Positions 4,346 through 53,309 of a stretch of 64,000 nt of DNA are shown in pieces. The stretch comes from Escherichia coli (GTDB lineage Bacteria; Pseudomonadota; Gammaproteobacteria; Enterobacterales; Enterobacteriaceae): NCBI RefSeq assembly GCF_022846255.1, contig NZ_AP025682.1. The stretch is one strand, 5' to 3'. Position 1 is the first letter of the stretch; every line of letters starts with the position of its first letter. A program made the translations under genes and the position numbers. The notes below the pieces were generated by a model, which was not told the origin of the DNA, ran no database searches, and saw only the letters and a list, made by a program, of their open reading frames with translations.

Positions 4346-4347
4346 GA

Positions 4348-18967: not shown

Positions 18968-18973
18968 TCGATC

Positions 18974-19681: not shown

Positions 19682-19684
19682 GAG

Positions 19685-21496: not shown

Positions 21497-21614
21497 TACC
21501 GAACGCCGGAGAACTGGACGACGACACCACGAAGCAGTCATTTCAGTCGGGGGATGATTGTAGACAAATTTGTTGACGCTATTTTGCGGTTTTGGCGTGA
21601 AGGGTGAGCATTCA

Positions 21615-25554: not shown

Positions 25555-25566
25555 CTCATATCAACC

Positions 25567-30003: not shown

Positions 30004-30005
30004 AC

Positions 30006-30902: not shown

Positions 30903-30904
30903 AA

Positions 30905-34940: not shown

Positions 34941-34963
34941 TGGTGCGAAGGCCGGACTCGAAC
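34941..34963 (-). repeat. 23-bp direct repeat of the leuX 3-prime end (att site / island junction)
   Basis: tggtgcgaaggccggactcgaac matches the 3-prime end of the tRNA at 53030-53054 except for one deleted base. Confidence 0.8.
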
Positions 34964-35685
34964 ATATTAATTATCCCGTTGTATTTAAGGCTATTTTATC
35001 AAAATCATTATTGAAGTACCATCATTAATACCATCATAGGTATTGTTCTCCTTTGGCAACAGTTCTTTGATATCGAAATACTTTAACGAACTTTTTATGA
35101 CATCATACTTTGAAGAAAAAATCACATACTGATTTTCATCCAGTACATCTTGCAAGACAAGGTATAAAACAGGGACTACGATTAAAAATAGCAAAGTCAT
35201 TCACTAAATGAATTCAAAATCAGTGATGTTCTTATCTGCAAGAATATAATATATTTAAAAGATTATAAGCAATATATAAATAATAATATAGCTTTAAAAA
35301 AACACACATGAATTAGAAGTTAAATACATTAATTAAAGAAACAAATAAGTAAGAATTTTGTTTTTAAATAACTCATGCAAACGCATCGTTTATTTATATT
35401 AAAGGAAAATGATGAAATCCAATCTAAATTTAAATAGCTACATTACAAACGAATAGAAAAAGAAGCATTTTCCATGTTAAACTACTATCTTGGTGAAGAC
35501 AGGGGGTATAGCCTTCTGCGGTAGCCTACGCTCTTCGAATGCAAAGCAAGAAAATAACCTTTATAATCAAATTGTTATGCAATGCGCTTGTAGAGCAAAG
35601 GTATCTTAAACGAATAGGTTTAACAGTTAAAGCCTCTTTACATAGGCTGAACAAGGGCAGTACTTGAAAATGATAAAATTGGGGT

Positions 35686-37371: not shown

Positions 37372-39673
37372 AGATATTCTTTTTTTGAAGGATAAGATGA
37401 AAGCCCTCCTGGATAATGAGGCTCTCGATTATGATAAAGTATTAGAAACAGCAGTAAAAATCACCGAAAAAGACAACAACAATATTAGATTTTCTGTAGA
37501 TGCGAATTTAGTTAGAAGATTAGGTGAGCAGTTAGTCGCTAAAAAAACTACTGCTGTCAGTGAATTGGTGAAAAATGCTTATGACGCAGATTCGACATTA
37601 GTAAATGTATATTTCGAATTGAACGAAGCAAATCCTCGAATAGTCATATTCGATGACGGCACAGGTATGTCAAAGGAAGATATTATCAATGGATTCATGC
37701 GAATAAGCACAAGTGAAAAAGAAGATAACTCTGTTTCAGAACGATATCAGAGACTAAGAGCAGGTAGAAAAGGTATTGGGCGTTTTTCTACACAGCGATT
37801 AGGAAATTATTTAAAAATAATTACCAAGCAAGAAAATGAAGAGTTAGGATATTTAATAGAAATTAACTGGCAGCAGTTTTCAAAAAAGAAAAATATATCC
37901 TTCATTGCTAACACTATCTCAAAAATCGATGTGGATTTCATTCATGGAACAAAAATAATAATAGAAGATCTGAATGATAAAGATTGGTCTGATGGGAACA
38001 TAAAAACGGCTTATAAATATATTAAGAGCATTATAAATATTGCCCCAAGCGAGACAGATCCAGGTTTCCAAGTAAAGTTCTATTATAAAAATGCCAATGG
38101 CTATGAATTAGTTGCAGATGAGAAAACTGAAATTTTTTCTGATAGTGATGCTCATATTACAGCAACACTTGAAAATGGAAATGCTGTAGTGAGAGTTAGC
38201 AGTGAAACCCTTGGCATAAAAAATGAAAGCATAGATGTATGGTATGATGAAAAAAATAACATACGAAAATTCTCACATATAAACTCTCCAGTAAAGCTTG
38301 ATGCATACTATTTCTCATTAGCAACAGTTAACTCCAGAAAACAAGCGGCATATTTACGTGAAAATGGCGGAATAAAAATCTATCGAAATGGATTCAAGGT
38401 TTCTCCTTATGGAGAGCAGTATGATGACTGGACGGCTCTTGATGACTCGGTTCGAAGGAGAAAGATATTACCCCCTCATGGTAATCAAAACTTCTTTGGA
38501 CACGTCAAAGTTGAAGACCTAAATGGAATAGACTTTGAAGAAACGTCCTCAAGGGAAGGTCTGATTCATACCGATGCCTTTCAAGAACTTCGCCTCTTTG
38601 TATATAAAGCACTGACGGCTGCGGTAATAAGAATTAGTGAAGCCAGAAATATAAAAATAAATCCAAATGACCGTAGCTATGTTAAAGAAACTAAACCAAC
38701 AATATCAGTCAAAGATAAATTAAATATTGTATCTGAAACGATAAGCTCGGTTAGTAAATTGGTAGATGCAGCAACATCTGTTGATGACGTTTCAAGTGAT
38801 GGTGTCATTAATAACATTGAAGATAAAAGTATAAGAAACAAAATTATTGAAGATCTCCATGAAGCCGCAGATGAGCTAAAACAAGCGAGTGTGATATCTC
38901 AATCTTTAATCGATGAAATTGAGCTTCTTAGAGTGCTTGGCGCTATGGGCCTTGCTATTGGTGAGTTTACACACGAAATAAATTTATCAATAACAAGTTT
39001 GAGTATTAACGTTCAAAACCTTAAACAGTCTAAATTATTAGAGGAAGATAGAGACTCTGCTCTAAATAGCCTTGAAAATAATATTGCAACATTAAAATCA
39101 TTTACTAAATTTTTTGACAGTACTATACGTGAGAATGTAAACAGAAATAAGAAAGTTATTGAGATAAGAGACTCTATTGAGCCATTTTATGAATCGATGA
39201 AACCAATAATAGAACGCAAAGGAATTCAGTTTGCAATACATTATGAAGGTTATGAACTTTTTACGAAGCCGATTCATGTTTCAGAGCTATATTCTGTATT
39301 TATAAATCTCTTTACGAATGCATATAAAGCAATACTTCGTTCTGGAACAAATCCACGAAAAATGTCTTTAACTGCGAAAAAAGATAGTGAAGATATAATT
39401 ATCCGATTCGAAGATAGCGGTGATGGAATTGAACCTGCAAATAGAGAAAGAGTTTTTGAGCCTTTCTATACAACAAGTACACCATCAGGACCTTTTGAAA
39501 GTGATGATTTATCATTAAAAGGAATGGGATTGGGGTTATCAATCGTACGTGATCTCGTTGAATCCATGTCTGCAGAAATATCTATAGTTGATGCATCCGA
39601 TGGTTTTACAACGTGCTTTGAGTTGAGAATTCCAAAAGCTGATGATAAGGAAATACCAGATGACATCTATTAA
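37364..39673 (+). CDS. Dual Bergerat-fold ATPase: N-terminal MutL/HSP90/MORC-like GHKL module plus C-terminal histidine-kinase core (HisKA-like H-box + HATPase_c)
   Basis: N-terminal motifs ELVKNAYDAD (approx 37562-37591), DDGTGMS, GRKGIGRF; C-terminal H-box GEFTHEINLSITSL (approx 38961-39000), N-box LFTNAYKAIL, G1 EDSGDGIE, F-box FEPFYTT, G2 GMGLGLSIV; no obvious TM segment; start overlaps MTase stop by 8 nt. Confidence 0.7.
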   Translation: MSEDILFLKDKMKALLDNEALDYDKVLETAVKITEKDNNNIRFSVDANLVRRLGEQLVAKKTTAVSELVKNAYDADSTLVNVYFELNEANPRIVIFDDGTGMSKEDIINGFMRISTSEKEDNSVSERYQRLRAGRKGIGRFSTQRLGNYLKIITKQENEELGYLIEINWQQFSKKKNISFIANTISKIDVDFIHGTKIIIEDLNDKDWSDGNIKTAYKYIKSIINIAPSETDPGFQVKFYYKNANGYELVADEKTEIFSDSDAHITATLENGNAVVRVSSETLGIKNESIDVWYDEKNNIRKFSHINSPVKLDAYYFSLATVNSRKQAAYLRENGGIKIYRNGFKVSPYGEQYDDWTALDDSVRRRKILPPHGNQNFFGHVKVEDLNGIDFEETSSREGLIHTDAFQELRLFVYKALTAAVIRISEARNIKINPNDRSYVKETKPTISVKDKLNIVSETISSVSKLVDAATSVDDVSSDGVINNIEDKSIRNKIIEDLHEAADELKQASVISQSLIDEIELLRVLGAMGLAIGEFTHEINLSITSLSINVQNLKQSKLLEEDRDSALNSLENNIATLKSFTKFFDSTIRENVNRNKKVIEIRDSIEPFYESMKPIIERKGIQFAIHYEGYELFTKPIHVSELYSVFINLFTNAYKAILRSGTNPRKMSLTAKKDSEDIIIRFEDSGDGIEPANRERVFEPFYTTSTPSGPFESDDLSLKGMGLGLSIVRDLVESMSAEISIVDASDGFTTCFELRIPKADDKEIPDDIY

Positions 39674-40763
39674 CCTACTTTATATCGATGATGATCAGCC
39701 TCAGCAAGTAAAGGGTTTAATTGAAGCAATAATCAGTAAAGCGAGTTTTGATTTAAATATAACTCATAAACCGCCGACGAAAATGAGTGAAATAGCCATA
39801 GAGTTGAGACAAGGTTATGATGGTATCATCATAGATCAAAAACTTGACAGCTTTGTTGAGGGAGTAGAACCAGTTGATTACTTTGGTGCCGCGTTAGCAC
39901 AAAATTTGCGAACACTCATGGCGGGTAAGTCAGATAATATATCTTATAAGCCAATAATTTTACTCTCTCTCGAAAGCTTATTAATTGAATATTATAATCC
40001 CGATTCAAGCTCGCATGATCTATTTGATTTAGTTTTGAGTAAAAGCATATTAGAACAACCAGAATTGTTAGAAAAAAAAGTTCACTTAATAAAATCTATT
40101 GTGAATGCTTACAAACGTGCACATTCGGAAGACTCGTTATATCAATTGCTTTCTCTGAGCAGTAATTATTCATTGCTTGATAAAAGATTTGAAATATATA
40201 TTTCTCAGTATGATAAAGATATACATAAGCTCGTCACATCCATACACTCCACACTTCTGAGAAGTAGTGGCATGTTAGTTTCTGAGATAACTTTGGCAAC
40301 CAGACTGGGTATTAATATTGAAGAATCGCCAGACTGGCACCAAGTAATTGGGCACCTTGAGGAATATAAATACAATGGCATATTCTCTGATTATTATAAA
40401 AGATGGTGGTGGGCAGATGTAGAGTTGTGGATAAATAAAAAGCTTAACTGCCCAATAATTAAAGGATTAACCTCAGAAAAAAGAGTGGAGATCATCAAAG
40501 AAAAACTTGGCTTAGAACGATTGATGCCAATTCATAGCGTACATCCAGGCCAAAGCACCAAGTTTTGGGTTAATTGTATCATCAGTAAAGAACCTCTTGA
40601 TACAATAGATGCTCTTCGTGCATCATCTATGGAATTAAAACCTTGGGAAGATGATAAATACCTTTCAATTAAAACAGTGTTAGAGAGACGGGCCGAAAAA
40701 TATAAAGTACATCCAGAAGATAGAACAAAATTGGATCGAATTCGGGCGAGGTTTAAATTATAA
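39642..40763 (+). CDS. Receiver (REC)-like domain protein with unassigned ~250-aa C-terminal domain
   Basis: CheY-like pattern: LLYIDDD (beta1, acidic pocket), GIIIDQKL (candidate phospho-acceptor Asp), KPIILLSLES (beta4 Ser); divergent REC, so call is tentative; overlaps kinase gene stop. Confidence 0.5.
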   Translation: MIRKYQMTSINLLYIDDDQPQQVKGLIEAIISKASFDLNITHKPPTKMSEIAIELRQGYDGIIIDQKLDSFVEGVEPVDYFGAALAQNLRTLMAGKSDNISYKPIILLSLESLLIEYYNPDSSSHDLFDLVLSKSILEQPELLEKKVHLIKSIVNAYKRAHSEDSLYQLLSLSSNYSLLDKRFEIYISQYDKDIHKLVTSIHSTLLRSSGMLVSEITLATRLGINIEESPDWHQVIGHLEEYKYNGIFSDYYKRWWWADVELWINKKLNCPIIKGLTSEKRVEIIKEKLGLERLMPIHSVHPGQSTKFWVNCIISKEPLDTIDALRASSMELKPWEDDKYLSIKTVLERRAEKYKVHPEDRTKLDRIRARFKL

Positions 40764-41506
40764 TGAACAATAATACAACTTTGTTAGACGATATGTGTAG
40801 GCTCAGGGACTTTTTATATGATAGCCGCATATGCCCAGATATTAATCCTCTCAACCGTTTAATCAGTAAACTTAATGCAAATCTCCACTCCGAAACAGGG
40901 GAGGACTTTGAATACTCTTTAGACGATTTAGTATTTTATCTTAGCGAAAAATCTGGAACAATTTGTCCGACCCAAATTACACCCAAAGAAAACCCTATTG
41001 AAATACATTTGGAACTTATATTAAAAAGTGAAGGCCCTTATGAATTTTCGAAGATTAAAGAACTTTCAGGGCAATTACGACTTAAAGCTGAGTGGATCAA
41101 TGACACAACAGAAAAAATTGAGATAAAAACATCACATAGTGCTTGGCATTTTGATTATCATGTTCCTCAAATGGGGGATGGCGTAAATTCATTTACTCAT
41201 CCTCAATTCCATTTACAAAATGGAGGAAACAGGCTGACTGATAATTTAAATGACTATGGAGAGTTAATGATTCTTGATGCTCCAAGACTACCTTTACCTC
41301 CTATGGATGTGATATTAGCCATTGACTTTATTATTTCAAATTTCTTTGGTTCTATTTGGCAACAAGCATTATGTGATTCAGAATACATTGATGTAGTTAA
41401 AAGAGCACAAAAAGCATGGTGGAAACCTTATTATGAAGGTATAAGTCAACACTGGTCTGGCAATGGCTCAGGAATATCCAATATCCTAATTCCAAACCTT
41501 CTGTAG
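40763..41506 (+). CDS. Hypothetical protein (247 aa), fourth gene of the operon; possible effector
   Basis: ATG overlaps preceding stop (ATAATG); His-rich segment HFDYHVPQMGDGVNSFTHPQFH; no confident motif. Confidence 0.6.
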   Translation: MNNNTTLLDDMCRLRDFLYDSRICPDINPLNRLISKLNANLHSETGEDFEYSLDDLVFYLSEKSGTICPTQITPKENPIEIHLELILKSEGPYEFSKIKELSGQLRLKAEWINDTTEKIEIKTSHSAWHFDYHVPQMGDGVNSFTHPQFHLQNGGNRLTDNLNDYGELMILDAPRLPLPPMDVILAIDFIISNFFGSIWQQALCDSEYIDVVKRAQKAWWKPYYEGISQHWSGNGSGISNILIPNLL

Positions 41507-41771
41507 TGTATCAAAATCTGTTAACCATCTCCAATTACGAATAGCAATATTTATATAAAACTAATTTTTTATTTTAAACAACTTCAGCAAGGGCTAACTC
41601 TCAGCATCTCCTTCGGTGATACTTTGAGTTGCTCCTTGTTTTTTCGCCCTTTGGTTGAAAAAATTAAAAGCAAAACCAACCCTATACATTGACTTTTTCA
41701 GCATCTATCATATAAATAAAATAAGCATAATGGACATGCTTATTTTACTTTACTATATGAAAGGAGTTCAT

Positions 41772-42185
41772 ATGAATGATAGGAATCATACTTTTAATAA
41801 GTTCGAGCCATTCAGAAGTTGTAGCTATGAAAATTTTACTTCTGCTAAAACACTCTCCCAGCAGACACGTTCTCATTGTATTAGTATCAGATTAAATGAT
41901 GCCGAGTTATCTTACGTTGATGGCTTACGAGAAGATCTCAACCGTGCTGTTTGGATACGTATGTCAGCATTGAATCGTCTCCCTTCCAAAATTCCTGAAA
42001 TAAATCTAATTGTCTGGAAAGACCTTGCCAAAGCATCTCAGAATCTGAATAACCTCGTTCAGCATCTCAACACTAAATCACACGATAGTCCTTTTACTAT
42101 CACCGAAATTTATACGGTACAAAAAAGAATAAAAGCACTAAGAGATGCCCTTCTGTCAGCAAATCGATCTGTCAGTGATAAATAA
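41772..42185 (+). CDS. MobC-like mobilization accessory protein
   Basis: Strong RBS aaggag 5 nt upstream of ATG 41772; small basic protein with ribbon-helix-helix-like segment (CISIRLNDAELSYVDGLRED); stop overlaps relaxase start (TAATG). Confidence 0.55.
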   Translation: MNDRNHTFNKFEPFRSCSYENFTSAKTLSQQTRSHCISIRLNDAELSYVDGLREDLNRAVWIRMSALNRLPSKIPEINLIVWKDLAKASQNLNNLVQHLNTKSHDSPFTITEIYTVQKRIKALRDALLSANRSVSDK

Positions 42186-43372
42186 TGAAAGGGATGCAAA
42201 AAATCCGCAGAGGAAAGAGTTTTGCTGGTGTCGTCCTCTATGCGTTAAAGCCCGGTTCTCATCATAAAAAAGACCCTATCGTGATCGGTGGAAATATAAC
42301 GATAGTTGGCAATGCCGCTAAAGATCTGATCGCTGAATTTGATAGCACCAAACAGCTTCGCCCTGACGTGCAAAAGGCTGTTTGGCACAACTCGCTTCGC
42401 TTACCTAAAGGTGAATCACTAACGGCTAAACAGTGGTCTGAAATAGCAGATGATTACATGTCCCGCATGGGCTTCTCTGAAACGCATCTCAGATGCTACG
42501 TCCTACATGACGACGAAGATGGCCAGCACATCCATATCATCGCCAGCAGAGTGTCTCTTGATGCCGGAAAGCTCTACCTCGGCAGGAATGAGAACCTGGC
42601 AAGCACGAGAATAATTCAGCAACTTGAAAGAAATTACAATCTGACAAGAACCAAAGGGCCAGGAGCTAAAGCATCTACATCTTCTCTTTCCTCTAAACCG
42701 AAACATAAAAAATCACGTAATGAGGCTATGTTAGAGGAGAGAACTGGTGAACCATGCCCTAAATCCATCATCCAAAGGGCTATAGATTCGATAACATTAA
42801 ATCCTATAGCAATTGATGACTTCGTTGAAAAGCTGAATAGCATAGGGATTACGGCGAAAAGCAATATTTCTTCAACTGGCAAGATGAATGGATTTTCCTT
42901 TGAATGCAAAGGTGTTGTGTTCAAAGCTTCCCAGCTTGGCAAGAAGTATAGTTGGAAGAACCTGGAATCAATGATTTCAATGAATTACAACTCACACATT
43001 GGTGATGAAAAACCTGTCATCCCTGAACCTGCTGCCCATCGCAGCAACGAAGCTGTCATACCTATAGTGGAAGACTATTCTGATGAAAAGATTTACCCTG
43101 AGATAAGGGTACCCTTACCAAGACCTGACACAGCGCCCACAAAACCTACAAGCATGACAATGCGTTGGATCGCAACCATACCTTATCTTGTGAGTGTTAT
43201 TAGCGCACTTAAAACGATGCGTATCCCCTTTCTAAAGGCGTTCAATGGCCCAAGGAAGTTCTTTTCCGTGTCCATGATTCACCTGTCCTCTGTAAGCCTG
43301 AAACAGACCAAAACGAATAATTTCAAACCAAAAAGTTCCCACCAAAAGGCCCACAAGCCCCTTCTCCCCTGA
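42185..43372 (+). CDS. Mobilization relaxase (MobA/VirD2-like)
   Basis: Relaxase histidine triad region HDDEDGQHIHIIASRV (HxH motif), N-terminal nickase-like domain; coupled to the MobC-like gene. Confidence 0.65.
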   Translation: MKGMQKIRRGKSFAGVVLYALKPGSHHKKDPIVIGGNITIVGNAAKDLIAEFDSTKQLRPDVQKAVWHNSLRLPKGESLTAKQWSEIADDYMSRMGFSETHLRCYVLHDDEDGQHIHIIASRVSLDAGKLYLGRNENLASTRIIQQLERNYNLTRTKGPGAKASTSSLSSKPKHKKSRNEAMLEERTGEPCPKSIIQRAIDSITLNPIAIDDFVEKLNSIGITAKSNISSTGKMNGFSFECKGVVFKASQLGKKYSWKNLESMISMNYNSHIGDEKPVIPEPAAHRSNEAVIPIVEDYSDEKIYPEIRVPLPRPDTAPTKPTSMTMRWIATIPYLVSVISALKTMRIPFLKAFNGPRKFFSVSMIHLSSVSLKQTKTNNFKPKSSHQKAHKPLLP

Positions 43373-43580
43373 TTTCTCCACAGATAAACGATCGTTATAA
43401 TCGATCGATTTATTTATATTGATAGTCAATAACAATCAATAGGTAAATAATCGATCGGTACAAGCAATTTGCTATGTCCTTAGAAGTGTTCAAAATGTAC
43501 TTTCATGCATAAATCGGATAATAGGTTGATTTTACTAGCCTATTTTTCTATCCACGTATCGAACATGCAGGGACTGAAGT

Positions 43581-44171
43581 ATGAGATATCTCATGATGAA
43601 GCGTGTAATGTTAGCAATCCTTCTTCCGTTTATTGTTGGATGTTTATTTGGTGCTAAAGCATTATCAGAGTATTGGGTTGTGTGGTTTTTTGTTTGTGCA
43701 ATGTTGATGATCACAGCCTGGGGCGTGTGGTTAAAAAATAAAAACAGAGGTTCCAGCTTCAGCTACCTGAATGATAATGAAGATGGTGTATTTATCTACA
43801 AATTTCATAATCAAGAGATGCGTTTAGATAAAGCCAAAAAAGAGCTTTATTTAAAAGATGGGTTAAACGAAAAAACCTACACTTTTTCCGATGTTGAAAG
43901 CTGGGAATATAAAATTAGCACAGGTGGTCAGATCCTCACTTCAGGTCTTAACCCTACAACTAACTTGATTAACAATAAGATTCTTGGTGAAAACATTAAT
44001 GACACCGGCTTCTTTATCAAAGTTAAAGACATCAGAAACCCTGAGTGGCATATTCGATTCTTCCCTCAAGAAGGATCTTATAAAGATCAGAGGGGATTAA
44101 TTAGCTTAAAAAAACAGATGATGCAGTGGATGACCGTTTTTGACTTAATCGTAAATGCTGATACAAAGTAA
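43581..44171 (+). CDS. Hypothetical inner-membrane protein (two predicted TM helices)
   Basis: N-terminal hydrophobic segments (VMLAILLPFIVGCLFGA; WVVWFFVCAMLMITAWGVWL) then soluble domain; function unknown. Confidence 0.6.
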   Translation: MRYLMMKRVMLAILLPFIVGCLFGAKALSEYWVVWFFVCAMLMITAWGVWLKNKNRGSSFSYLNDNEDGVFIYKFHNQEMRLDKAKKELYLKDGLNEKTYTFSDVESWEYKISTGGQILTSGLNPTTNLINNKILGENINDTGFFIKVKDIRNPEWHIRFFPQEGSYKDQRGLISLKKQMMQWMTVFDLIVNADTK

Positions 44172-44182
44172 GGAAAACAAGA

Positions 44183-44473
44183 ATGAAAAAAACCATGCTA
44201 CTATTATTAGCTTCAATGTCGCTGACAGGTTGCAACAGTGAACCATCCGATGCAGATATTTCAAAAGCCATGCAGAGCTTTATGAGTGAGATGCATGGTA
44301 CCCTGAACTCGTCTAAAAAACTTGCGTGTAAAGATATAGAGAGTGATGGCAGTTATCTCTGCTCTGTAGAGTTCGATGCTAAACTTCCAATCGTGGGCCA
44401 TAGAGAATCGACGCTAGAATTAAAGTTTATTAAATCCGATGACTCCTGGAAAGCAATGGCTCCATCTAAATAA
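44183..44473 (+). CDS. Small lipoprotein (96 aa)
   Basis: Signal peptide with lipobox (LLLASMSLTGC); 11 nt downstream of the membrane protein gene. Confidence 0.6.
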   Translation: MKKTMLLLLASMSLTGCNSEPSDADISKAMQSFMSEMHGTLNSSKKLACKDIESDGSYLCSVEFDAKLPIVGHRESTLELKFIKSDDSWKAMAPSK

Positions 44474-44566
44474 ACTTAATTATATTTGACAATAGAAAAA
44501 TAGTACGTCATAGATAGTAAATTGATAACAACCAGTGGGTTGAGCCACTGGCTGTTATCCCAATGG

Positions 44567-44644
44567 TTAATACACGGATGTACTAACCACCATTAAAAGG
44601 ATAAACAACATCACCTTTAATGCACGGGAGCGTTTTTTAGACAT
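44567..44644 (-). CDS. Unannotated 25-aa hydrophobic peptide (MSKKRSRALKVMLFILLMVVSTSVY); type I toxin-like small ORF
   Basis: Minus-strand ATG with GGAG 6 nt upstream; basic N-terminus then a single hydrophobic helix; a 14-bp imperfect hairpin (approx 44524-44558) lies just downstream. Below the ORF-track length cutoff. Confidence 0.3.
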   Translation of the reverse strand: MSKKRSRALKVMLFILLMVVSTSVY

Positions 44645-44730
44645 ACGCCACTCCTTCTTTTTCATCATCAACCTTATTGTTGGTGATGTTGCCTCTTTGG
44701 GCTGATGCAGATTATCATTTTAGAATACTA

Positions 44731-44756
44731 AAAGCATCCTTTCGGATGCTTTTTTT
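44731..44756. terminator. Bidirectional intrinsic terminator
   Basis: aaagcatcc-tttc-ggatgcttt hairpin flanked by an A-run upstream and T-run downstream, between convergent/adjacent transcription units. Confidence 0.6.
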
Positions 44757-44850
44757 CGCCTTGAAAATATTAGCAAGATAATAATCCATAAAGGATAATA
44801 TAAAAACCAAAATAATATGCTACGGTAGTTGTTATAAAAATCACATAAAA

Positions 44851-45273
44851 CTACAGTCCATATTTTTTCCTTTTATCCTTCATCAATAATTCTCTTTTTA
44901 GGGTAGAAGCCTCATGTTTCCTTCTCTCATTAATATAGACTTTTTCGGTTCTACTACCATTGCTCACAATGAAATTGATAAGTGAAGAGCATACGTTTTT
45001 CATACGCTCTTTATCGAGCATGTCATTTTCAATATTATTGATATTGCAGTAATAAGAAAGTAGTAAAAAATTCAACACTACTTCCCTGTTTGAGAACGTT
45101 AGTTTTTCTATTTCAGGCTGGTATTTAATGTAGAACCCGGCACAAAACAGGTATGATTGTTCGATAATTTGTTGCTCTGAGAAGTCTGATTCAGAGAGTT
45201 TATCAACGAATCGATCAAGTAGAAGAAGATACCTTTCCATCAAATGAATATTTATTTTTTCCATAACATGCAT
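44851..45273 (-). CDS. Hypothetical protein (140 aa)
   Basis: ORF in AT-rich island cargo downstream of the recombinase operon; no motif recognised. Confidence 0.5.
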   Translation of the reverse strand: MHVMEKINIHLMERYLLLLDRFVDKLSESDFSEQQIIEQSYLFCAGFYIKYQPEIEKLTFSNREVVLNFLLLSYYCNINNIENDMLDKERMKNVCSSLINFIVSNGSRTEKVYINERRKHEASTLKRELLMKDKRKKYGL

Positions 45274-45357
45274 CCTTGCAATTTATTTTGCCATCCTGAC
45301 AATTAAATAAATACCATAATTATTAATCACGTCAATAGTTAAAACCTATCTATTTTA

Positions 45358-45756
45358 TTAAAGGTATTTTGCAGGTAACGGATTATTAAGTTCTTCAATC
45401 GTTATTTGTTTAAGGTGAGCATTATAAAGCCATACTTTGAACTGCTCTAAATAGCGTTCATTTAATGCCTTCAAAGCCTCATTTTCTGCTTCAAGTCTTC
45501 TAATTCGTTGAGAAGCCACTTTTAAATTAGCAGGTTTTACAGTATGTATTGCACCAGATTTGATAGTGGCCTTTTTCACACTGAAGCTTTCTGCAATCCT
45601 TACATGACTACTTAAGGATTGTCTTGATGGTCTTTTCCCAATAATCCTTACTAACCTGTCGCACAAAGCATCCCAGGTTAGTTTTTCATCTATAGACCAT
45701 GTGTTAATAACATCTACAATCTTCTTCTCATGATAACCATTTATATGCTTAGCCAT
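45358..45756 (-). CDS. Small basic coiled-coil protein (132 aa), accessory gene of the recombinase operon
   Basis: Starts 1 nt after the stop of the 543-aa recombinase; heptad segment RIRRLEAENEALKALNERYLEQ. Confidence 0.55.
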   Translation of the reverse strand: MAKHINGYHEKKIVDVINTWSIDEKLTWDALCDRLVRIIGKRPSRQSLSSHVRIAESFSVKKATIKSGAIHTVKPANLKVASQRIRRLEAENEALKALNERYLEQFKVWLYNAHLKQITIEELNNPLPAKYL

Positions 45757-47388
45757 TTATTCTCCTTTTTTTATTCTCTTATGGAATTCATACCATCTAT
45801 CAGCATTTATGTTCCCATCATTTTTATCATACAGTGTTCTTTTTGAAATTTTATCGTGAATTTTTGAAATCGTTTCGTTATCTAAACCAGAATTCTCAAT
45901 CGGATAATGTTCACACGGCTTAAACGCATATGAGTGCTTGCAGTAGCCATGTTTTGATACCAGTACTGCACCACTACTAAGTGAATCAAACTCATTAAGA
46001 ACCACCACTGGAATATCCTTTATTCTGTGCTCATTAACACACACTGATAACTTTTGTTCTCTTATTGCTTTAGACATTTGAAGATGCGATCTGTGGTCAT
46101 AAGAAAAATTTTGAGAAATAAGCTTACGTCCAGACCAGCGAGCAATACTAAACTCATCCATACCATTTATTTGAGCAAAAGTGTTGAGAAGATGCCTCAG
46201 TTGATGTGTTCTTAGCAAATATGGGCTACCATCATCATTTATATAACCATGTCTTTTAAATACATTTAAATATCCTTTTATATAATCAGAATCAACGATA
46301 TCAGTTTTAAAAAAATTCGTTGTAGGTCTGAATAACTTATCTAACATTTCCTTTTTATTTTGATTTAACTGTCCTTCAGTTAACAAGCAAAGCGCATTAG
46401 AATATTTGATTTTCTTCTCTCTATCATACCAAAAGAGATCTGGAGGTATATTTTCTTTAAGGGTTCCCATCGTTGAATTAGAGTAATTCTTTTGAATTTC
46501 AGCAGCCAATAATCTCGCTTGACTTGATAATTCTTTTAATCTGCTAATAGCCTTTTTTGCTACAGGTATCATTAAAGTTGGAATCCATTTTATATTGCCT
46601 TCATACCCTTTTGCTGAAAAAAATCTTAAACCGTATCTTTGAATGCCCTTTCCATCACATTCTGTAATTTCACAATCCACTGGCAAAGCTAAAATTTCCG
46701 ATATCCTACTCGGTGCACACATAAGTAAAGCAAGCACAGATGTAGTAAATATATCTCTTGACGATAATTGTTCATCCCGCTTTGAAAAAATCTCAGCAAT
46801 CGCAATAACTGATTTGATATCAGGCAATCTAGAATGGCCTTCCAGTGAAGAATCATAACCAGTCCAAGACTGAGTAATCCTATACCTAATTGGACTTATC
46901 CAAAATAAATAAGATGAGTTAGTCATCCTATTATCATTTAAAAATGAACTCAATTTCTCAAGTTCTTTCCCAATAGCAAATGCATGTGCTTTAGAATACT
47001 TTTCAGAGGCTATCCTTATGCATTCATCAAAGATTGAATTGTTGCAATAGTTTACATTAGCTTCCATATTGATTTTAAGTAAAACGAATTCGACAATCTT
47101 CAACATTGATAATGTTGAGTGTTTCGTCTTAGATTTATTGAATGAATGCACATGCAACATATATGCTTTAGCAAAATTAATAAAGCTATCATCTAAGCAT
47201 TCTTTGCTGTTTAGGTTGTTTTTTGAGTTAAACTTAGTAAACCTATATAAACCTTTCCATTTATTGCTTTCCCAAGAAGTTGTTAAATTATTATTAGAAA
47301 TAGTACTCTTACAAAACTCGATGAACTTAATAACATTATCGTGAGGGTTGTTTTTATTGCTTGGTTCAAAAATAAATATATTGTTCAT
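45757..47388 (-). CDS. Tyrosine recombinase (543 aa), third of three tandem recombinases
   Basis: Catalytic-region motifs PSRISEIL (box I Arg), HQLRHLLNT (HxxR), downstream Tyr region; 4-nt overlap with the upstream recombinase gene. Confidence 0.65.
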   Translation of the reverse strand: MNNIFIFEPSNKNNPHDNVIKFIEFCKSTISNNNLTTSWESNKWKGLYRFTKFNSKNNLNSKECLDDSFINFAKAYMLHVHSFNKSKTKHSTLSMLKIVEFVLLKINMEANVNYCNNSIFDECIRIASEKYSKAHAFAIGKELEKLSSFLNDNRMTNSSYLFWISPIRYRITQSWTGYDSSLEGHSRLPDIKSVIAIAEIFSKRDEQLSSRDIFTTSVLALLMCAPSRISEILALPVDCEITECDGKGIQRYGLRFFSAKGYEGNIKWIPTLMIPVAKKAISRLKELSSQARLLAAEIQKNYSNSTMGTLKENIPPDLFWYDREKKIKYSNALCLLTEGQLNQNKKEMLDKLFRPTTNFFKTDIVDSDYIKGYLNVFKRHGYINDDGSPYLLRTHQLRHLLNTFAQINGMDEFSIARWSGRKLISQNFSYDHRSHLQMSKAIREQKLSVCVNEHRIKDIPVVVLNEFDSLSSGAVLVSKHGYCKHSYAFKPCEHYPIENSGLDNETISKIHDKISKRTLYDKNDGNINADRWYEFHKRIKKGE

Positions 47389-48710
47389 AATGCTCTCCAG
47401 GGATTGAATTTTTTACACGTTAAGCATTTCAAATCCTCTTTCGTATCTTCTAATAAGAAAAATGCATCTGAAACATACTTGATAAAAAAGTTCTTGTTTT
47501 CTTCAATCTCTATGCCCATAAGTATATTAGATAAGGGGTTAAAAAACGCACTTAGTCTCTTATCGATGTCATAAACGTTGTCAGGATTGTTTTTTATATA
47601 TATCATAGAAGAGTTTACTGATTTATGATCTAAGGCTTTAGCAATCACCTCAATTGAGGCTCCTTCGTTAGCCAGTCGACTTCCTAACGTATATCTGAAT
47701 CTTCTAGCATTAAGTTCTATATAGCTGTTAGTCCTTTCTGACCTAACATCGAATTTTGACGGAAAGTGTTTTAATAGTTTTGACATAACTGAATTTTTCA
47801 TATGGAAAAAATCTGTTGTTAAATCAGATAAAAAATCCTCAATCCTTTTTGTTTCCGTAATCTTATCTAAATTCATGAAGATTGGTAATTCGCCTCTATA
47901 GTTATTAATCCCAACACTGAATTTATCTTCAACAAACGCCTGATTTTGATTAATTAGCATTGATAAACTGTCATATAAGAACGGTTCTATCATTACCATA
48001 TTAAATTCTTTTCTGAAACATTTTCTTTGTTTTACTTTTGGTACATTCAAAAAGCACCCTCTCTCATTTTTAATGAGATCTTTAGCTTTTAGAGATATCA
48101 ATTGTAATGGCCTTCTTCCTGTTATTGCCAGCAAAAGGATATAACAATACAAAAAGCATTGAATTTTCTTCTCATGATAAAATTTTCCAACGGCGTTAAT
48201 AATGTTATTGAATTCCGTTTCAGTTAAAGGTCCTTTATTTGGATCTCGTCTTTTAACTGCATCTCCTGTTTGGTTTGGAATGATTTTTATTTTCTCCAGC
48301 ATTCTAATGGCAGTCGCATCTACCCCAGGGTAATTGAGATTTTTCCATTTAGTGATGAAAGCCTTAATTGAGTTTAGTTTGTAGTTTCTTTCTGAACCTA
48401 AATAAACATTCAATTGATATATTGCTTTGTCATCAATAGTATCGATGGTCATTGCACCAAACCACTTATAAAATAGATTGTTAATATTTTGTATATAAAA
48501 AGAACTATATTCAGACGCATAGTAAGCTAATGTTTTTAAGTAGCTAAGTTTCATTTTTGTAGGCATTCTATCTACAACTTTATGAGGGTATACGCAGTTT
48601 TCTTTATCAAGTTGCCATTTCTTATCTGACAGTTTGAAACTATATCTATTCATCTTAGCAAAAAAAATTTGCTCACTTTCAATACATTTTATTTCCACAT
48701 TAAACCCCAC
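47385..48710 (-). CDS. Tyrosine recombinase (441 aa), second of three
   Basis: Motifs ITGRRPLQLISLK (box I Arg), RFRYTLGSRL and LDHKSVNSSMIY (box II); overlaps neighbours at both ends. Confidence 0.65.
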   Translation of the reverse strand: MGFNVEIKCIESEQIFFAKMNRYSFKLSDKKWQLDKENCVYPHKVVDRMPTKMKLSYLKTLAYYASEYSSFYIQNINNLFYKWFGAMTIDTIDDKAIYQLNVYLGSERNYKLNSIKAFITKWKNLNYPGVDATAIRMLEKIKIIPNQTGDAVKRRDPNKGPLTETEFNNIINAVGKFYHEKKIQCFLYCYILLLAITGRRPLQLISLKAKDLIKNERGCFLNVPKVKQRKCFRKEFNMVMIEPFLYDSLSMLINQNQAFVEDKFSVGINNYRGELPIFMNLDKITETKRIEDFLSDLTTDFFHMKNSVMSKLLKHFPSKFDVRSERTNSYIELNARRFRYTLGSRLANEGASIEVIAKALDHKSVNSSMIYIKNNPDNVYDIDKRLSAFFNPLSNILMGIEIEENKNFFIKYVSDAFFLLEDTKEDLKCLTCKKFNPWRAL

Positions 48711-49905
48711 TAATTATTTTACTTACTGATTTATAGACCTTTAGGACGACATCCTTCTCTTGTTGGGATATATATTTAAAATTGTATCTATTACACATGA
48801 TTGACTCCTTTGACCAACCCATTAGATAATTCCTTAAATCTTTCCTTCTACTATATTCTAATTCAGCGCCTTCAATTCCTTTAGAATACATATAATTCCA
48901 AGAGTGCCTTAACCTATGACCTGAAAGATTATATAGCTTTGGACTTGCTCGTTTCAGTGTTGATATCACCTTCTCATAAGCTGAAATGCTTAAGGGTTCT
49001 CCTGCGTTTTTTCCGGTGCAATGAGCCACGAATAAGAAATTATGTTTTTTCCTTTTTGTCATTTTTTCCCTGCTATTGCTTATGTAATCAAAAATTTCAC
49101 TGGCTAACTCATCAGATAACGGAATAACCCTTTCTCCAGTCTTTACTAATGGCTGATAAGCTCTTCCATCTTCTTTTGAATCATGTCTTCTGACTACACT
49201 TAAAGTGTTGTCTCTGAGATCAAAATCATCTATTTTAAGATTGAGCAACTCTCCAGCCCTTAAACCTAAATTTAAGAGCAAGGTAAATATTAGTCTGTTC
49301 CTGACCTGTACTTCCTTATGAAAAGGGTTTTCAATCCCACCAATTTCCAATAGACGGAAAAGCACATTGATCTCTTCTTCATTTAACGATTTTTCAGATA
49401 TTTCATTCATATTCAATGAACTGTTTCTTGGAATATGTGCTCTGATACTTTCAATAAATACTTCTACTTCATACTTTGCATGAATCCCCTTTGACGAATG
49501 AACTAATCCACATAACCACTTAAGGTAGCGTGAAAAAACGTGTACTCTATAACTAAAGGTTCTCTTTGCAATAAACCTATTACTTGCTGATTTTATATTT
49601 ATAATTTTTTGTCTATCGAATCTTTGTTTCGCATATCTTACCAGATCATCTATTTCTGCAACGCTGAGATACTTTTTAAGCTCAATTCTCTCAACTATAT
49701 TAATTTTCCTACTATCTAAGAAATTACTAAAAATTAGTAAGTTAGTTGCAACTATTTCCATAGTTGAGGCGGTTGCGCCTCTATTTCTTATGTCTGTAGT
49801 AAGAAATAGATTTTGATAGTAAGCTGGTAGATTACTATTTTTATCAAGGATCAGGCATCCTCGCTCCCCATTACTCATGATGAATTTCTTTACTTTATAT
49901 CCCAT
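48700..49905 (-). CDS. Tyrosine recombinase (401 aa), first of three
   Basis: Motifs LGLRAGELLNLKIDD (box I Arg), GHRLRHSW (HxxR), LMGWSKESIMCNRY (box II Tyr). Confidence 0.65.
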   Translation of the reverse strand: MGYKVKKFIMSNGERGCLILDKNSNLPAYYQNLFLTTDIRNRGATASTMEIVATNLLIFSNFLDSRKINIVERIELKKYLSVAEIDDLVRYAKQRFDRQKIINIKSASNRFIAKRTFSYRVHVFSRYLKWLCGLVHSSKGIHAKYEVEVFIESIRAHIPRNSSLNMNEISEKSLNEEEINVLFRLLEIGGIENPFHKEVQVRNRLIFTLLLNLGLRAGELLNLKIDDFDLRDNTLSVVRRHDSKEDGRAYQPLVKTGERVIPLSDELASEIFDYISNSREKMTKRKKHNFLFVAHCTGKNAGEPLSISAYEKVISTLKRASPKLYNLSGHRLRHSWNYMYSKGIEGAELEYSRRKDLRNYLMGWSKESIMCNRYNFKYISQQEKDVVLKVYKSVSKIISGV

Positions 49906-50029
49906 TTTGACCTCATTCTTTACAAATTAATATCACTCTCACTTATTAAATATATTCCAATTCAAAATAATTCAAATTTTTTACAATGGCTTTAGTTTAT
50001 TTGGTATATATATTAATGGCTTGAAAAAA

Positions 50030-50049
50030 TTTATTTGACGTCAAATAAA
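50030..50049. repeat. 20-bp perfect palindrome upstream of the recombinase trio
   Basis: tttatttgacgtcaaataaa centred on GACGTC, ~125 bp upstream of the first recombinase start codon. Confidence 0.5.
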
Positions 50050-50287
50050 CAGGTACGGCTAGTATTGAGTATCCATACCCGATATTAAGAAAACCATCTT
50101 CAACCCTTATAGCAAAAGCTCTGCTAGAAAAAAGGTAAAGAATTACGTCAAATATACTTATTTTTCAGATACAAACTTTACAAAGCCTCTTTTTTTTCAA
50201 AGCCACTAAGTAAACTCAAAAGATCTCTAAATTCCTTTTTCTTAATACATTATCAAAAGTTAAAAAATCCATGAAGCAGCATTCCTG

Positions 50288-50491
50288 TTAAGCGACATGC
50301 TTTCTTGAATTTTCGATAATTAATTGAATCCATTCATCGATTTCGCTTTCTACAAAAGCGGTAGCACGAATACCGATCTTTACTGGCTGTGGGAACCGAT
50401 TTTGGCTGATAAGACGATAGATCCACGCTTTACCAAATCCAGTTTTCTTCATGACTTCTGGTAAACGGATGAGACGAGCTTGATTTTCCAT
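50288..50491 (-). CDS. alpA: AlpA-family phage/island transcriptional regulator (excisionase-like HTH)
   Basis: MENQARLIRLPEVMKKTGFGKAWIYRLISQNRFPQPVKIG... typical AlpA HTH; RBS agga 7 nt upstream of ATG 50491 (the ORF-track start at 50575 is probably too long); adjacent to the integrase module. Confidence 0.75.
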   Translation of the reverse strand: MENQARLIRLPEVMKKTGFGKAWIYRLISQNRFPQPVKIGIRATAFVESEIDEWIQLIIENSRKHVA

Positions 50492-50611
50492 ATGTATGTC
50501 CTCTGTTGTGTCTACAGGGCTACAGTACAAATGAATTTCGAATGGATGAAGCGAGATTACGAACATCAGAGCCATCCCTGGCTCGAAACTATGAGTCTCT
50601 GGAGATTCATA

Positions 50612-51523
50612 TCACTCAGAGTCTGAGAGTTTCATAACATCCGAAACCCTCATTTCTTTAACATGCTGATTTTTATTGATAAAAAAGTTAAATTGCCTTA
50701 AAAAATCAATTTCTACAGTTTTCATTGCGAAAGGCCGATCAGCATCTCTTATATGATATCCTTGGCGAATCGCCTTATCATCATCTTCATCCGTGTATAG
50801 CAATCGAGATAATCTGTCGTCTGACAGAAGTAATTTTTTTCTTTCTGACCATGCGAGCAAATCAAGCATAGGGATAATTCGATAGCTAATTAATTTTTTT
50901 ATTGCCCCATAACCAAATCTGACTGCATCAAGTGGTGCAGGTTTAACGCCTTTTACTTTTCGCCATTGTGGTAATGATACTCGCAGGGCCTCAGCTATCT
51001 CATCATCGCTTCCACCCGCAAGATCGATTTCTAACATAATCGTAGTAGGAAACTGTTCAGGAATTTTTTCGGAAATATATTCATTTTCAATAGTGGAATC
51101 AATTTTATATTGTTCTGTATTTGCTCTAATGAATAAAGCCTTTCTCATACAATCAAAACTGATATTTGCTATTCGATCAACAGTAGTAATAAAAAAGTAT
51201 GGGGGTTGATATAATTTATTTTCGGCATCCATATAATTTAAGTGCTTCTCTTTGATAAGAAAAGGATCACCATCCAATATCTGCATATAATTTTTCAATA
51301 CTGTTTTCTGCATTCCTTCTTCTATTACTGGTTTGAAAAAATAGGTTCTCGCCCATATTTCATGGTAAAGCATATTAATAGAAATGTTTTCAAACCCTCG
51401 ATATTTGTCCAAATCAAACCACGTTTTCACTGCTTTGGTGTCTTCTGATGTCCAACTATTCATTTTTACCCAAGATTTCATTAATGCCACTCCGTTGTAA
51501 AAAGTTTTACTTCGTAATAGCAC
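50612..51523 (-). CDS. Hypothetical protein (303 aa) of the integrase-alpA module
   Basis: ORF between integrase and alpA on the same strand; no motif recognised. Confidence 0.55.
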   Translation of the reverse strand: MLLRSKTFYNGVALMKSWVKMNSWTSEDTKAVKTWFDLDKYRGFENISINMLYHEIWARTYFFKPVIEEGMQKTVLKNYMQILDGDPFLIKEKHLNYMDAENKLYQPPYFFITTVDRIANISFDCMRKALFIRANTEQYKIDSTIENEYISEKIPEQFPTTIMLEIDLAGGSDDEIAEALRVSLPQWRKVKGVKPAPLDAVRFGYGAIKKLISYRIIPMLDLLAWSERKKLLLSDDRLSRLLYTDEDDDKAIRQGYHIRDADRPFAMKTVEIDFLRQFNFFINKNQHVKEMRVSDVMKLSDSE

Positions 51524-51592
51524 ATAAATCGCAAATAAAAAAATGGCGTCTCAATTGGTTATTGAATACGCCATTTTACTCATAAAAATCAG

Positions 51593-52840
51593 TTAGTTAT
51601 TAAAATCAAAAGGTGCAATTCTTCTCTTAGTTGTTTCATCAAGATAATCAGCCCACCACTGCAACATCAACCTACGCTCATCCAAATGCTCAGCTTTATG
51701 AATGTATGCGGCACGAACGGAGTTCCGCTCCTGATGGCTCATCTGCCTCTCAACAGCATCTCTCGACCACTTTCCTGACTCGATCAAAGCACTACAAGCC
51801 ATCGCTCTAAAACCATGCCCACATACCTCAACGGTTGTGTCATAACCCATCGCCCTGAGCGCCTTGTTCACTGTGTTTTCGCTCATAGGTTTTCTGAAAT
51901 CATGATCGCCAATGAATACCAGGTCGCATTCGCCGCTGATTTCTCTGATGGCTTTTAGAAGTTCTAAAGCCTGACGACTTAACGGCACGAGGTGTGGGGT
52001 CTTCATTTTTGAACCTCGATGGGAATGTTTGACTCCTGGCAATAGCTCGCGTTCTCCAGGGATAGTCCACATCGCATTTTCAAAGTCGATCTCCGACCAT
52101 CTTGCGAATCGGAGTTCAATGGAACGGATAAAAATGAGCAATGTCAGCTTCACAGCTAATTTAGTAAGTTTCCTACCTTTAAAGCTTTCAATGCGCTCTA
52201 AAAGCTCTGAGAACCTATCAAATGGTAAGGCTGGTCTGTGGGTTCGTTTCGCAACTGTAATTGCCCCAGACATATCTTGTGCTGGATTGTAGTCAATTAA
52301 GCCATTCTGGACGGCATATCGCATTACTGCCGTAGTCCTTTGCTGTAGTCGGGAAGCAACTTCCAGTCGTCCAGAAGCTTCAACGGCCTTGATAGGGGCG
52401 ATAAGATCTCTGGTATTAAGCTCGGATATTTTTCTTTTACCAATAGCAGTAAAGAGACCATCCTCCATGCTTTTTAGAACTCTTTCGCTGTGAGAATCTG
52501 ACCATTTCCTTTTACAGGCAGTATGCCAGTCCCTTGCAACAGCTTCGAATGTCAGGGCTTCGCTTTGCTCAATCTTATCTGCTTTTTTCTTTTCAGAAGG
52601 ATCGATACCATCAGATACCAACTTTTTGGCTTCATCTCGCTTCCTGCGGGCTTCACCAAGAGAGACCATTGGATAAACACCCAATGCTAAAACTTTCTGT
52701 TTGCCCCCGAAACGGTATTGGAGTCGCCAGTACTTTGAACCATTGGGGTTGATCAGCAGGTGCATACCCTGCCCATCTGTGAGTTTGAAAGGTTTATCGG
52801 AGGGCTTTGTTGTTCGAACTTTGATATCAGTGAGTGCCAT
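51593..52840 (-). CDS. P4-type tyrosine integrase (intact)
   Basis: 415 aa; N-terminal GSKYWRLQYRFGGKQ and C-terminal catalytic region (HGFRAMACSAL, conserved Tyr region AAYIHKAE); starts 190 bp from the tRNA 3-prime end. Confidence 0.85.
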   Translation of the reverse strand: MALTDIKVRTTKPSDKPFKLTDGQGMHLLINPNGSKYWRLQYRFGGKQKVLALGVYPMVSLGEARRKRDEAKKLVSDGIDPSEKKKADKIEQSEALTFEAVARDWHTACKRKWSDSHSERVLKSMEDGLFTAIGKRKISELNTRDLIAPIKAVEASGRLEVASRLQQRTTAVMRYAVQNGLIDYNPAQDMSGAITVAKRTHRPALPFDRFSELLERIESFKGRKLTKLAVKLTLLIFIRSIELRFARWSEIDFENAMWTIPGERELLPGVKHSHRGSKMKTPHLVPLSRQALELLKAIREISGECDLVFIGDHDFRKPMSENTVNKALRAMGYDTTVEVCGHGFRAMACSALIESGKWSRDAVERQMSHQERNSVRAAYIHKAEHLDERRLMLQWWADYLDETTKRRIAPFDFNN

Positions 52841-53029
52841 CAGTTGATACCTCCATTGTTGGTACCAAAATCAATCGAACCGAGAATACCATCAGTTATA
52901 CCATCATCGGTTGGTATATGTTCAAGGAATTGAGTAGACGTGAACAGACTAAGCCAAGTCAGAAACTCGCTTAACTTACTGTTTTTTTGGACTAAAGTAG
53001 ACGTTAGTAGACTTGAAAAAAGCTTTGTA

Positions 53030-53114
53030 TGGTGCCGAAGGCCGGACTCGAACCGGCACGTATTTCTACGGTTGATTTTGAATCAACTGCGTCTACCGAT
53101 TTCGCCACTTCGGC
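53030..53114 (-). tRNA. leuX: tRNA-Leu (leuX-like, 85 nt with long variable arm)
   Basis: Acceptor stem GCCGAAG/CUUCGGC, T-arm GGTTCGAGTCC and 3-prime CCA read on the minus strand; sits between ahr and a P4-type integrase as at the K-12 leuX locus. Confidence 0.9.
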
Positions 53115-53309
53115 ACTGAAGAGGTATGCGGAAAACGTTGTGAATTATACCTGTCACGCGCCACCATGCAAGCGCCAGCTTGCTCGCACCTCGCTAAGTG
53201 CTGAAATTTTCAGCATTGCATACCGCGATGTGTAACCTTTGTCACACTCCAGGCACCCCGCCCTGCCATGCTCTACACTTCCCAGACCACACCAGAGAAG
53301 GACCAAAAA

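Follow-up and report, generated by a model that had tools for sequence, protein, structure and literature searches.

In the ROD21-like (EARL) islands, an '843 bp gene of unknown function' accompanies the gene of the recombination directionality factor (RDF; PMC6035254, 2018). This length agrees with a 281-residue subgroup of the DUF6387 protein family, a member of which is encoded on the minus strand of the stretch of Escherichia coli DNA analysed here (64,000 nucleotides of contig NZ_AP025682.1, referred to below as the window). Two published gene tables also list the family: in ICEKp258.2 of Klebsiella pneumoniae ST258, ORF28 (KPNJ2_RS09320) is a DUF6387 gene beside the AlpA gene ORF27, and in a Serratia island the order is DUF6387, AlpA, recombinases. 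These tables are the only mentions of DUF6387 that we found in the literature; the supplementary files of the ICEKp258.2 paper contain nothing on it, and no functional study of a DUF6387 gene was found. The AlpA homologue of ROD21, SEN1998, has the features of an RDF and binds both att regions, and its deletion or overexpression shifts ROD21 excision only slightly (PMC8844411). SEN1999, which we infer to be the ROD21 copy of DUF6387, serves only as an island boundary or primer site in PMC3976249, PMC7074111 and PMC8844411. The protein, its family and its association with an RDF (2018) are already known. Added here are the extension of that association beyond the EARL islands to leuX/P4-integrase, three-recombinase and primase-bearing elements, down to about 20% identity; a predicted fold without a solved relative; a hotspot of defence cargo in the gap behind the gene; and unrelated genes in the integrase–alpA interval elsewhere.

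In the window, the DUF6387 gene belongs to the backbone of an integrative island of 18 kb that is inserted at leuX (Table 1). It shares with its EARL counterparts the family itself and a same-strand RDF gene of the AlpA family immediately downstream (120 bp away here). In EARL islands, however, DUF6387 lies at the island end opposite the integrase and the target is tRNA-Asn, whereas in the present island, at tRNA-Leu, it comes directly after a P4-type integrase gene (int). EARL islands are recognized by an Asn-tRNA and a conserved direct repeat; the present island has tRNA-Leu(CAA) and a repeat of the leuX 3′ end. A type IV pilus and a relaxase of the MobA/MobL family (MOBQ) together with TraD make up the syntenic EARL core, often along with H-NS, and int and the RDF gene occupy opposite ends. 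Among the open reading frames (ORFs) of the window island there is no pilin, TraD or H-NS, int and alpA lie at the same end, and the island carries instead a three-recombinase module, a MobA/VirD2-type relaxase and a methyltransferase system. Neither is it a P4-like satellite, because no primase, psu, sid or delta was found; the island has int and alpA and no other member of the satellite core (psu, delta, sid, alpA, epsilon, alpha primase and int). In CP4-57 of E. coli K-12, YfjH is likewise an uncharacterized protein of ∼300 amino acids (aa) encoded between a P4-type integrase gene (intA) and alpA, but it is on the opposite strand and has no Pfam family; YfjH was rejected as a DUF6387 relative at an hhalign probability of 0.2%.

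The program-made list of ORFs gives the gene 303 codons counted from GTG 51523 (50612–51523). This GTG has no ribosome-binding site, and the start is likely to be ATG 51481, which is preceded by GGAG 8 nt to its 5′ side and yields a 289-aa product. The majority of homologues begin at a methionine that aligns with residue 7 of this product, so ATG 51463 (283 aa) is also a possible start. The same 289-aa coding sequence, 99.9% identical at the DNA level, carries the RefSeq name 'DUF6387 family protein' in E. coli TUM11353. The initial annotation of this stretch had described a 303-aa ORF between int and alpA without a recognizable motif. Its setting stands as described, with a P4-type integrase gene on one side and a PF05930 gene on the other. 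No functional motif was recognized here either, but the protein gives a match to Pfam family PF19924 (DUF6387) with 263.6 bits against a gathering cut-off of 28.9 (E = 2.7e-78); residues 10–265 align with positions 2–258 of the 258-position model, i.e. over its full length. All 66 of 66 aligned diverse relatives match PF19924 alone. A profile search of 1.84 billion representatives returned 466 DUF6387 members at E ≤ 0.001, and the 150 of these that are listed are either fragments or proteins of ∼256–385 aa, none of them of multi-domain size. The 289-aa protein is of single-domain size (∼260–330 aa) and has no second domain. A word-indexed search gave 112 clusters in which every attached organism name falls within Enterobacterales, and nine distant members were looked up, those with names being from Serratia, Xenorhabdus, Erwinia, Izhakiella and Enterobacter, all of that order. 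DUF6387 thus appears from its sequences to be a taxonomically narrow yet highly divergent family (to ∼20% identity): within one order identity between relatives drops to 20–30%, whereas the integrases keep 40–90%.

The ORF is a real gene. In 200 shuffled versions of the 18-kb island no run free of stop codons reached its length (maximum 222 codons, mean 114), and the ratio of nonsynonymous to synonymous substitution (dN/dS) against alleles of 88–95% identity is 0.09–0.10, which indicates purifying selection; the corresponding values are 0.05–0.06 for int and 0.06–0.13 for alpA. Frameshifted copies occur in a few degenerate islands (L024, L040, L041, L043 and L045), as would be expected of a chance ORF or a decaying pseudogene without function. 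That explanation is effectively refuted by the selection and conservation data, to which the 466 family representatives, the Pfam match and a structure model of high confidence (pLDDT 92.2) belong.

The predicted product is soluble, moderately acidic and of ∼285 aa. Its calculated isoelectric point is 6.2 (the family median is 5.5 and AlpA has 10), and a membrane-segment prediction gave none. In the diverse alignment Trp21 and Tyr27 are invariant and Arg45, Gly71, Arg174 and Asp207 are almost so; no catalytic signature was seen in it. Conservation is strongest in the C-terminal half, where the motifs WRK, R.G..TIKK and YR.IP.LD accompany a cluster of basic residues, and this basic core stands out in an otherwise acidic protein. 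The fold is, according to the model, mostly α-helical and has no solved relative. Sequence searches of the Protein Data Bank (PDB) returned only chance matches to G6PD (E ∼1) for the single protein and no match for a profile of 66 DUF6387 sequences. The remote-homology comparison proposed in the initial annotation, made at the levels of sequence, profile and fold, gave no functional relative. NCBIfam returned no match, Pfam detected neither a DNA-binding nor an effector-type domain, and no family of PADLOC-DB v2 (5,027 models) matched at E ≤ 1; the same PADLOC models strongly match neighbours in the window and the cargo of relatives. The sole PHROGs match, phrog_23422, is annotated 'unknown function'. 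A tblastn search of 50,697 phage records found no true phage, its lone match being a Salmonella chromosomal contig, and a housekeeping phage gene, which the initial annotation had considered as a possible identity, was accordingly not among the matches. Among 72,556 records of a plasmid collection four matched, two of which (H28 and H30) retain the order DUF6387–AlpA. One plasmid-labelled match of 3.7 kb, OX345049.1, was considered as an excised mini-circle and rejected, since the record is linear, a contig from a draft assembly. DUF6387 is essentially restricted to islands of the int/alpA type.

Rep genes lie near int/xis in some islands, such as SGI1 and GIsul2, and a protein of ∼285 aa in this position resembles them. 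In addition, the elements that contain DUF6387 differ in their mode of transfer, and each goes through a circular form. A role in replication or maintenance of the excised circle, as an initiator, a partition protein or a stability factor, is nevertheless very unlikely: Pfam, NCBIfam, PDB sequence and fold searches showed no similarity to Rep, partition or toxin families, no iteron-like repeats were found near the gene, and several relatives have replication proteins or primases of their own, apart from DUF6387.

The linkage of the gene was followed in 60 loci seeded on DUF6387: 45 from genome contigs searched with a closer DUF6387 alignment, 12 from exact-protein look-ups (one close and five distant members) and three from the plasmid collection. 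In 44 of the 60 the same-strand gene that follows belongs to the AlpA family, and in two it is an excisionase-type gene with an HTH_17 domain; in a further five, alpA follows beyond 1–5.5 kb of inserted genes. The same inserts are present in L005 and L011, where the sequence stops before alpA is reached; alpA is absent from three loci and four are not assessable. The distance from DUF6387 to alpA is ∼100–130 bp in most loci. A P4-type int lies immediately upstream on the same strand in 16 of the 60, and these include the most distant members examined (∼20–30% identical, with E values of 1e-11 to 1e-26 against the profile); in the remaining loci DUF6387 either begins the gene order at the island edge or lies opposite a divergently oriented integrase gene. 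The order int–DUF6387–alpA holds to about 20% identity. DUF6387 and alpA constitute a conserved att-proximal module, often, and ancestrally, together with a P4-type int. The conserved position proposed in the initial annotation is borne out by these counts, an AlpA or excisionase-type gene being next in 46 of 60 loci and behind cargo in five more, and comparison of related islands shows that DUF6387 is kept next to alpA across deep divergence.

The same module is found in islands that differ in transfer equipment. A three-recombinase module accompanies the pair in ∼20 loci, with one very common allele in E. coli genomes of ∼4.8–5.5 Mb. The DUF6387–alpA pair is also found in an H-NS/DUF4756 backbone like those of ROD21 and ICEKp258.2, in elements with a Bro-N protein and a DUF927-type primase, and in relaxase-bearing islands. 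Through recombination at all junctions, int, DUF6387, alpA and the recombinase module exchange their alleles freely. In the conjugative IncFIB/HI1B plasmid pINF177.2 of K. pneumoniae (CP110748.1, locus 2902–6302), the integrase gene and DUF6387–AlpA are divergent across a 435-bp gap, the layout expected of a circular (attP) ROD21-like island.

This att-proximal position bears on whether the protein could be a structural accessory of recombination, i.e. an intasome or architectural component, or a factor for the choice of target or orientation, acting with Int and AlpA at attP, attL or attR. The gene always follows an att-adjacent int or is the first gene of an island end, and in the latter case int lies across attP in the circular form. 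The conserved basic C-terminal core would suit such a role, for which TnpC and GinD, small integration-stimulating proteins of multi-recombinase elements, provide a precedent (PMC5385486). The role is improbable, however, as many P4-type int/AlpA pairs with int and alpA adjacent do without DUF6387, the protein combines with integrases that are 39–99% identical, use different tRNA targets and are in some cases divergently oriented, and it is acidic overall and lacks a DNA-binding domain detectable with Pfam.

The non-coding sequence around the gene suggests that DUF6387 is transcribed as a unit by itself and that alpA is under a promoter regulated separately. A hairpin followed by a T-run is located between the int stop codon and the DUF6387 start, and hairpins with T-runs are found at the same place in other lineages (L009, L010, L017, L021 and L026). 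The consensus terminator scan did not return this hairpin because its loop is long, and its terminator function is therefore putative. Within the DUF6387–alpA gap there is a palindrome, GAGCCAGGGATGGCTC, at 50569–50584, and a −10-like TACTGT at 50522–50527, about 30 nt before the alpA ATG. Across loci, a TATAGT-like box with a poor −35 element is conserved ∼30–35 nt upstream of the alpA start, as would be expected for a regulated promoter. The suggestion of a separate unit rests on the hairpins after int, the box of alpA itself and the cargo insertions described below. A consensus promoter scan returned eight sites against 7.3 in shuffled sequence, i.e. no excess; therefore, no promoter for the DUF6387 gene is claimed from the scan.

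The DUF6387–alpA gap is a cargo hotspot, of which the window carries the empty state. In L026 and L011 the gap holds a CBASS cyclase (E = 1e-198) with a 2TM effector; in L046 it holds Olokun OloA/OloB, adjoined by a pair that, by reading of its sequence, is a MazEF-like candidate; L004 and L005 have a two-gene set with a PADLOC candidate match ('cll'), and L009 and L014 have other genes of unknown kind. In L004 and L014 the cargo is bordered on the right by ∼40 nt left over from a DUF6387 3′ end (…RVSDVMKLSDSE*), immediately ahead of the promoter region of alpA. It follows that allele and cargo were swapped together by recombination within the 3′ end of the gene. DUF6387 is the flank of this hotspot and is not exchangeable cargo itself, because its order next to alpA persists and the gene stays when the cargo changes. 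Our literature search for an alpA-linked defence hotspot found nothing relevant. The present arrangement is comparable to the hotspot of PMC9122126 (2022) in that a conserved flank, here DUF6387, and a conserved neighbour, here alpA, bracket a short gap with exchangeable defence cargo; it differs in that the ORF considered here is the flank, the hotspot is empty in the window and the island is not a P4-like satellite. Since the pair brackets the cargo gap, it is usable as an anchor for mining new defence cargo.

The occupancy of the int–alpA interval was examined in a non-circular test, using 61 loci in viral contigs seeded on relatives of the integrase. Where alpA lies downstream of int in these contigs, the interval is empty or holds unrelated ORFs on the same strand, a DUF6387-like gene being found only once. 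The unrelated ORFs encode proteins of 212, ∼245, 241 and 324 aa (L076/L082, L090–L102, L114 and L085, respectively) with no Pfam family. The AlpA proteins of DUF6387 loci cluster together, 37 of 38 having a DUF6387-associated nearest neighbour. What fills the interval thus differs from lineage to lineage, DUF6387 being one occupant that is deeply conserved. The initial annotation had regarded the slot as one in which P4-type islands often carry accessory or defence-related cargo. Such cargo does occur, with CBASS, Olokun and other genes one step over in the DUF6387–alpA gap, and unrelated genes do fill the int–alpA interval elsewhere; that the ORF itself is accessory or defence cargo is not supported, as it is a conserved element without a PADLOC match.

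Master regulators occupy the interval between int and xis in several other elements, for example cI in phage 186/P2, ImmR/ImmA in ICEBs1 and Stl in the Staphylococcus aureus pathogenicity islands (SaPIs), and InrR adjoins the P4-family integrase gene intB13 of ICEclc. These regulators share with DUF6387 a position in the control region, lineage specificity, fast evolution and a unit of their own, and there, too, unrelated proteins fill the same slot in related elements. They differ from it in that there is no likeness in sequence or fold and DUF6387 has no detectable helix–turn–helix, so that the likeness is one of position only; moreover, DUF6387 is co-directional with int and alpA and not divergent as in those systems. 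By this analogy we tentatively favour a role for DUF6387 in regulating the excision/activation switch or in giving it specificity. The protein would act in trans, non-enzymatically and in a lineage-specific manner, and would set or sense the times at which AlpA (or Int) is active; for this it would bind AlpA or Int themselves or, via the conserved basic core of its C-terminal half, DNA or RNA. This proposal draws on the fixed place in the control region, the restriction to islands, the independence from the mode of transfer, the regulated-looking alpA promoter and the conserved basic core, in addition to the analogy with the int–xis regulators.

Several observations weigh against a regulatory role. 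L015/L017 combine a DUF6387 identity of 51% with an AlpA identity of 90%, and the free recombination between DUF6387 and alpA alleles argues against tight protein–protein co-evolution. Cargo can lie between DUF6387 and alpA, so co-transcription is not needed, and an architecture with a promoter and a terminator of its own is also typical of 'morons'. DUF6387 is not universal: in some P4-int/alpA modules int is followed directly by alpA and in others by unrelated genes. Beside AlpA proteins of 72–75% identity there is, depending on the element, a distant DUF6387, an unrelated ∼245-aa protein or no ORF of 60 aa or more. That similar AlpA proteins have different occupants beside them implies that DUF6387 is exchangeable, which would also fit a conflict or cargo role.

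The main rival explanation, which is the version closest to the idea of the initial annotation, is accordingly that DUF6387 is a long-fixed, moron-like 'conflict' gene under its own promoter, serving the island or its host (by exclusion, anti-defence or the sensing of defence) and with no part in excision control. Besides the different occupants just described, it would account for what appears to be a stand-alone unit between a terminator-like hairpin and the promoter of alpA, for the fast evolution and the fold without a solved relative, and for an acidic, non-enzymatic protein, and the adjacent gap is a proven landing site of CBASS and Olokun. We consider it somewhat doubtful, since the protein matches none of the PADLOC models, has no effector-type domain or membrane segment and, unlike typical defence and anti-defence genes, is virtually absent from phages and plasmids; furthermore, the gene keeps one fixed place beside alpA over deep divergence and element types and stays while cargo is exchanged.

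The regulatory reading may be extended to the other occupants of the interval. DUF6387 might be one of several unrelated, interchangeable proteins X of an int–X–alpA slot, acting as master regulators or sensors of P4-integrase/AlpA islands that include ROD21, ICEKp258.2 and primase-bearing elements resembling phage-inducible chromosomal islands. Each X would silence alpA, in the manner of SaPI Stl or of phage immunity repressors, and would answer to its own inducer, such as a helper phage or plasmid protein or stress. Such a scheme, which is speculative and rather unlikely in this general form, would account for both the fixed position and the rapid, lineage-specific divergence. As the gene upstream of the RDF gene, DUF6387 is a candidate for the missing control element of ROD21, a Salmonella virulence island, and of ICEKp258.2 of the epidemic ST258, because the RDF SEN1998 alone shifts ROD21 excision only slightly (PMC8844411). 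For the window itself, the gene is an ordinary, catalogued backbone gene and no new defence system.

Table 1. Features of the leuX island around the DUF6387 gene (window coordinates).
Feature	Position	Strand	Evidence or remark
tRNA-Leu(CAA) (leuX)	53030..53114	-	ARAGORN; Rfam tRNA 59.4 bits
att core, 3′ end of leuX	53030-53054		Repeat found at 34941-34963
P4-type tyrosine integrase, 415 aa	51593..52840	-	Pfam Arm-DNA-bind_3, Phage_int_M, Phage_integrase
Terminator-like hairpin AAAATGGCGT / ACGCCATTTT, 18-nt loop, plus T-run	51533..51577	-	Inverted repeat I7
DUF6387 gene, 289 aa	50612..51481	-	PF19924; maximal ORF to GTG 51523
DUF6387–alpA gap, 120 bp	50492..50611	-	Empty state of cargo hotspot
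alpA-family excisionase/transcriptional regulator, 67 aa from ATG 50491	50288..50491	-	PF05930 Phage_AlpA, E = 2.7e-20
Conserved non-coding element 3′ of alpA	50066..50185	-	Alignment A3
Distal att repeat TGGTGCGAAGGCCGGACTCGAAC	34941..34963	+	23/24 positions as in tRNA 3′ end, one base missing (k-mer match)

The distal copy of the att repeat delimits an island of ∼18.1 kb (34941–53054) with a G+C content of ∼30–35%. From leuX inwards, it consists of int, DUF6387, alpA, three tyrosine-recombinase-like genes and ORFs of 132 and 140 aa; it further holds genes of a DUF4755 protein, a MobA/VirD2-type relaxase (PF03432) and a type II methyltransferase with a GHKL-ATPase protein. The AlpA-family ORF has a maximal extent of 50288–50575, and its PHROG matches are to excisionase and regulator families. 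A search of Rfam over 49800–53200 found no RNA family besides the tRNA. The cargo at 35686–41506 comprises an Eco57I-like type II N6-methyltransferase gene overlapping that of a 769-aa protein with two GHKL-ATPase domains, which has a weak PADLOC REase_II match, accompanied by genes of unannotated proteins of 373 and 247 aa; this set is possibly an atypical modification-dependent defence operon. Past the distal repeat lies a truncated P4-type integrase gene (33949–34818, 289 aa) that retains the N-terminal and central domains only. The presence of this older integrase beside a degenerate copy of the leuX 3′ end implies tandem accretion of islands at leuX.

The three-recombinase module (45358–49905, minus strand) consists of overlapping ORFs of 401, 441 and 543 aa followed by those of 132 and 140 aa, and the same five-gene block follows alpA in ∼20 related loci. 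Phage_integrase matches two of the three recombinases and the third has no Pfam match. The GInt/Tn6571 elements (ginABCD) have three consecutive tyrosine-recombinase genes and a small fourth gene at the 5′ end, and the module of the window is likened to them by gene organization alone; GinC is described as lacking some typical recombinase domains and as often annotated hypothetical (PMC5385486). On the 5′ side of the module homology breaks at a sharp junction, ∼160 nt before the first of its genes. The conserved element that follows alpA (∼120 nt) has a mean column identity of 85% across loci in which the flanking proteins are only 50–75% identical, and it terminates in GGTATGGATAC. Past GGTATGGATAC, loci with the three-recombinase module have 4–5 variable bases and then ACTAGCCGT, and in loci without the module homology ends exactly there. 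The element appears to mark the edge of the conserved backbone at its junction with the three-recombinase module, and it has the look of an attachment site or module junction, perhaps including a promoter directed outwards. A σ54-like reading of it (TGGCAG-N5-TTGCT in several loci) was dropped, as the window sequence lacks the GG and the −12 position varies. A perfect 20-nt palindrome, TTTATTTGACGTCAAATAAA, is found at 50030–50049, just inside the 5′ end of the module and ∼125 nt upstream of its first gene.

Outside the island the window carries further defence loci. A type III Wadjet system at 24499–32371 (minus strand) encodes JetA3, JetC3 and JetD3 (PADLOC E values of 0 to 1e-244), with a 298-aa gene in the JetB position and a divergent gene of a WYL-domain protein at 32547–33440. 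Between it and the other systems, a truncated nanM-like gene (20999–21607) represents remains of the core genome. Further defence systems are stacked at 4348–20788: a type II Zorya system (ZorA2/B2/E2, 17258–20788), a type III Druantia system (DruH3, 13744–17103; DruE3, 7430–13753) and a DrmD-like SNF2 helicase (4348–7206).

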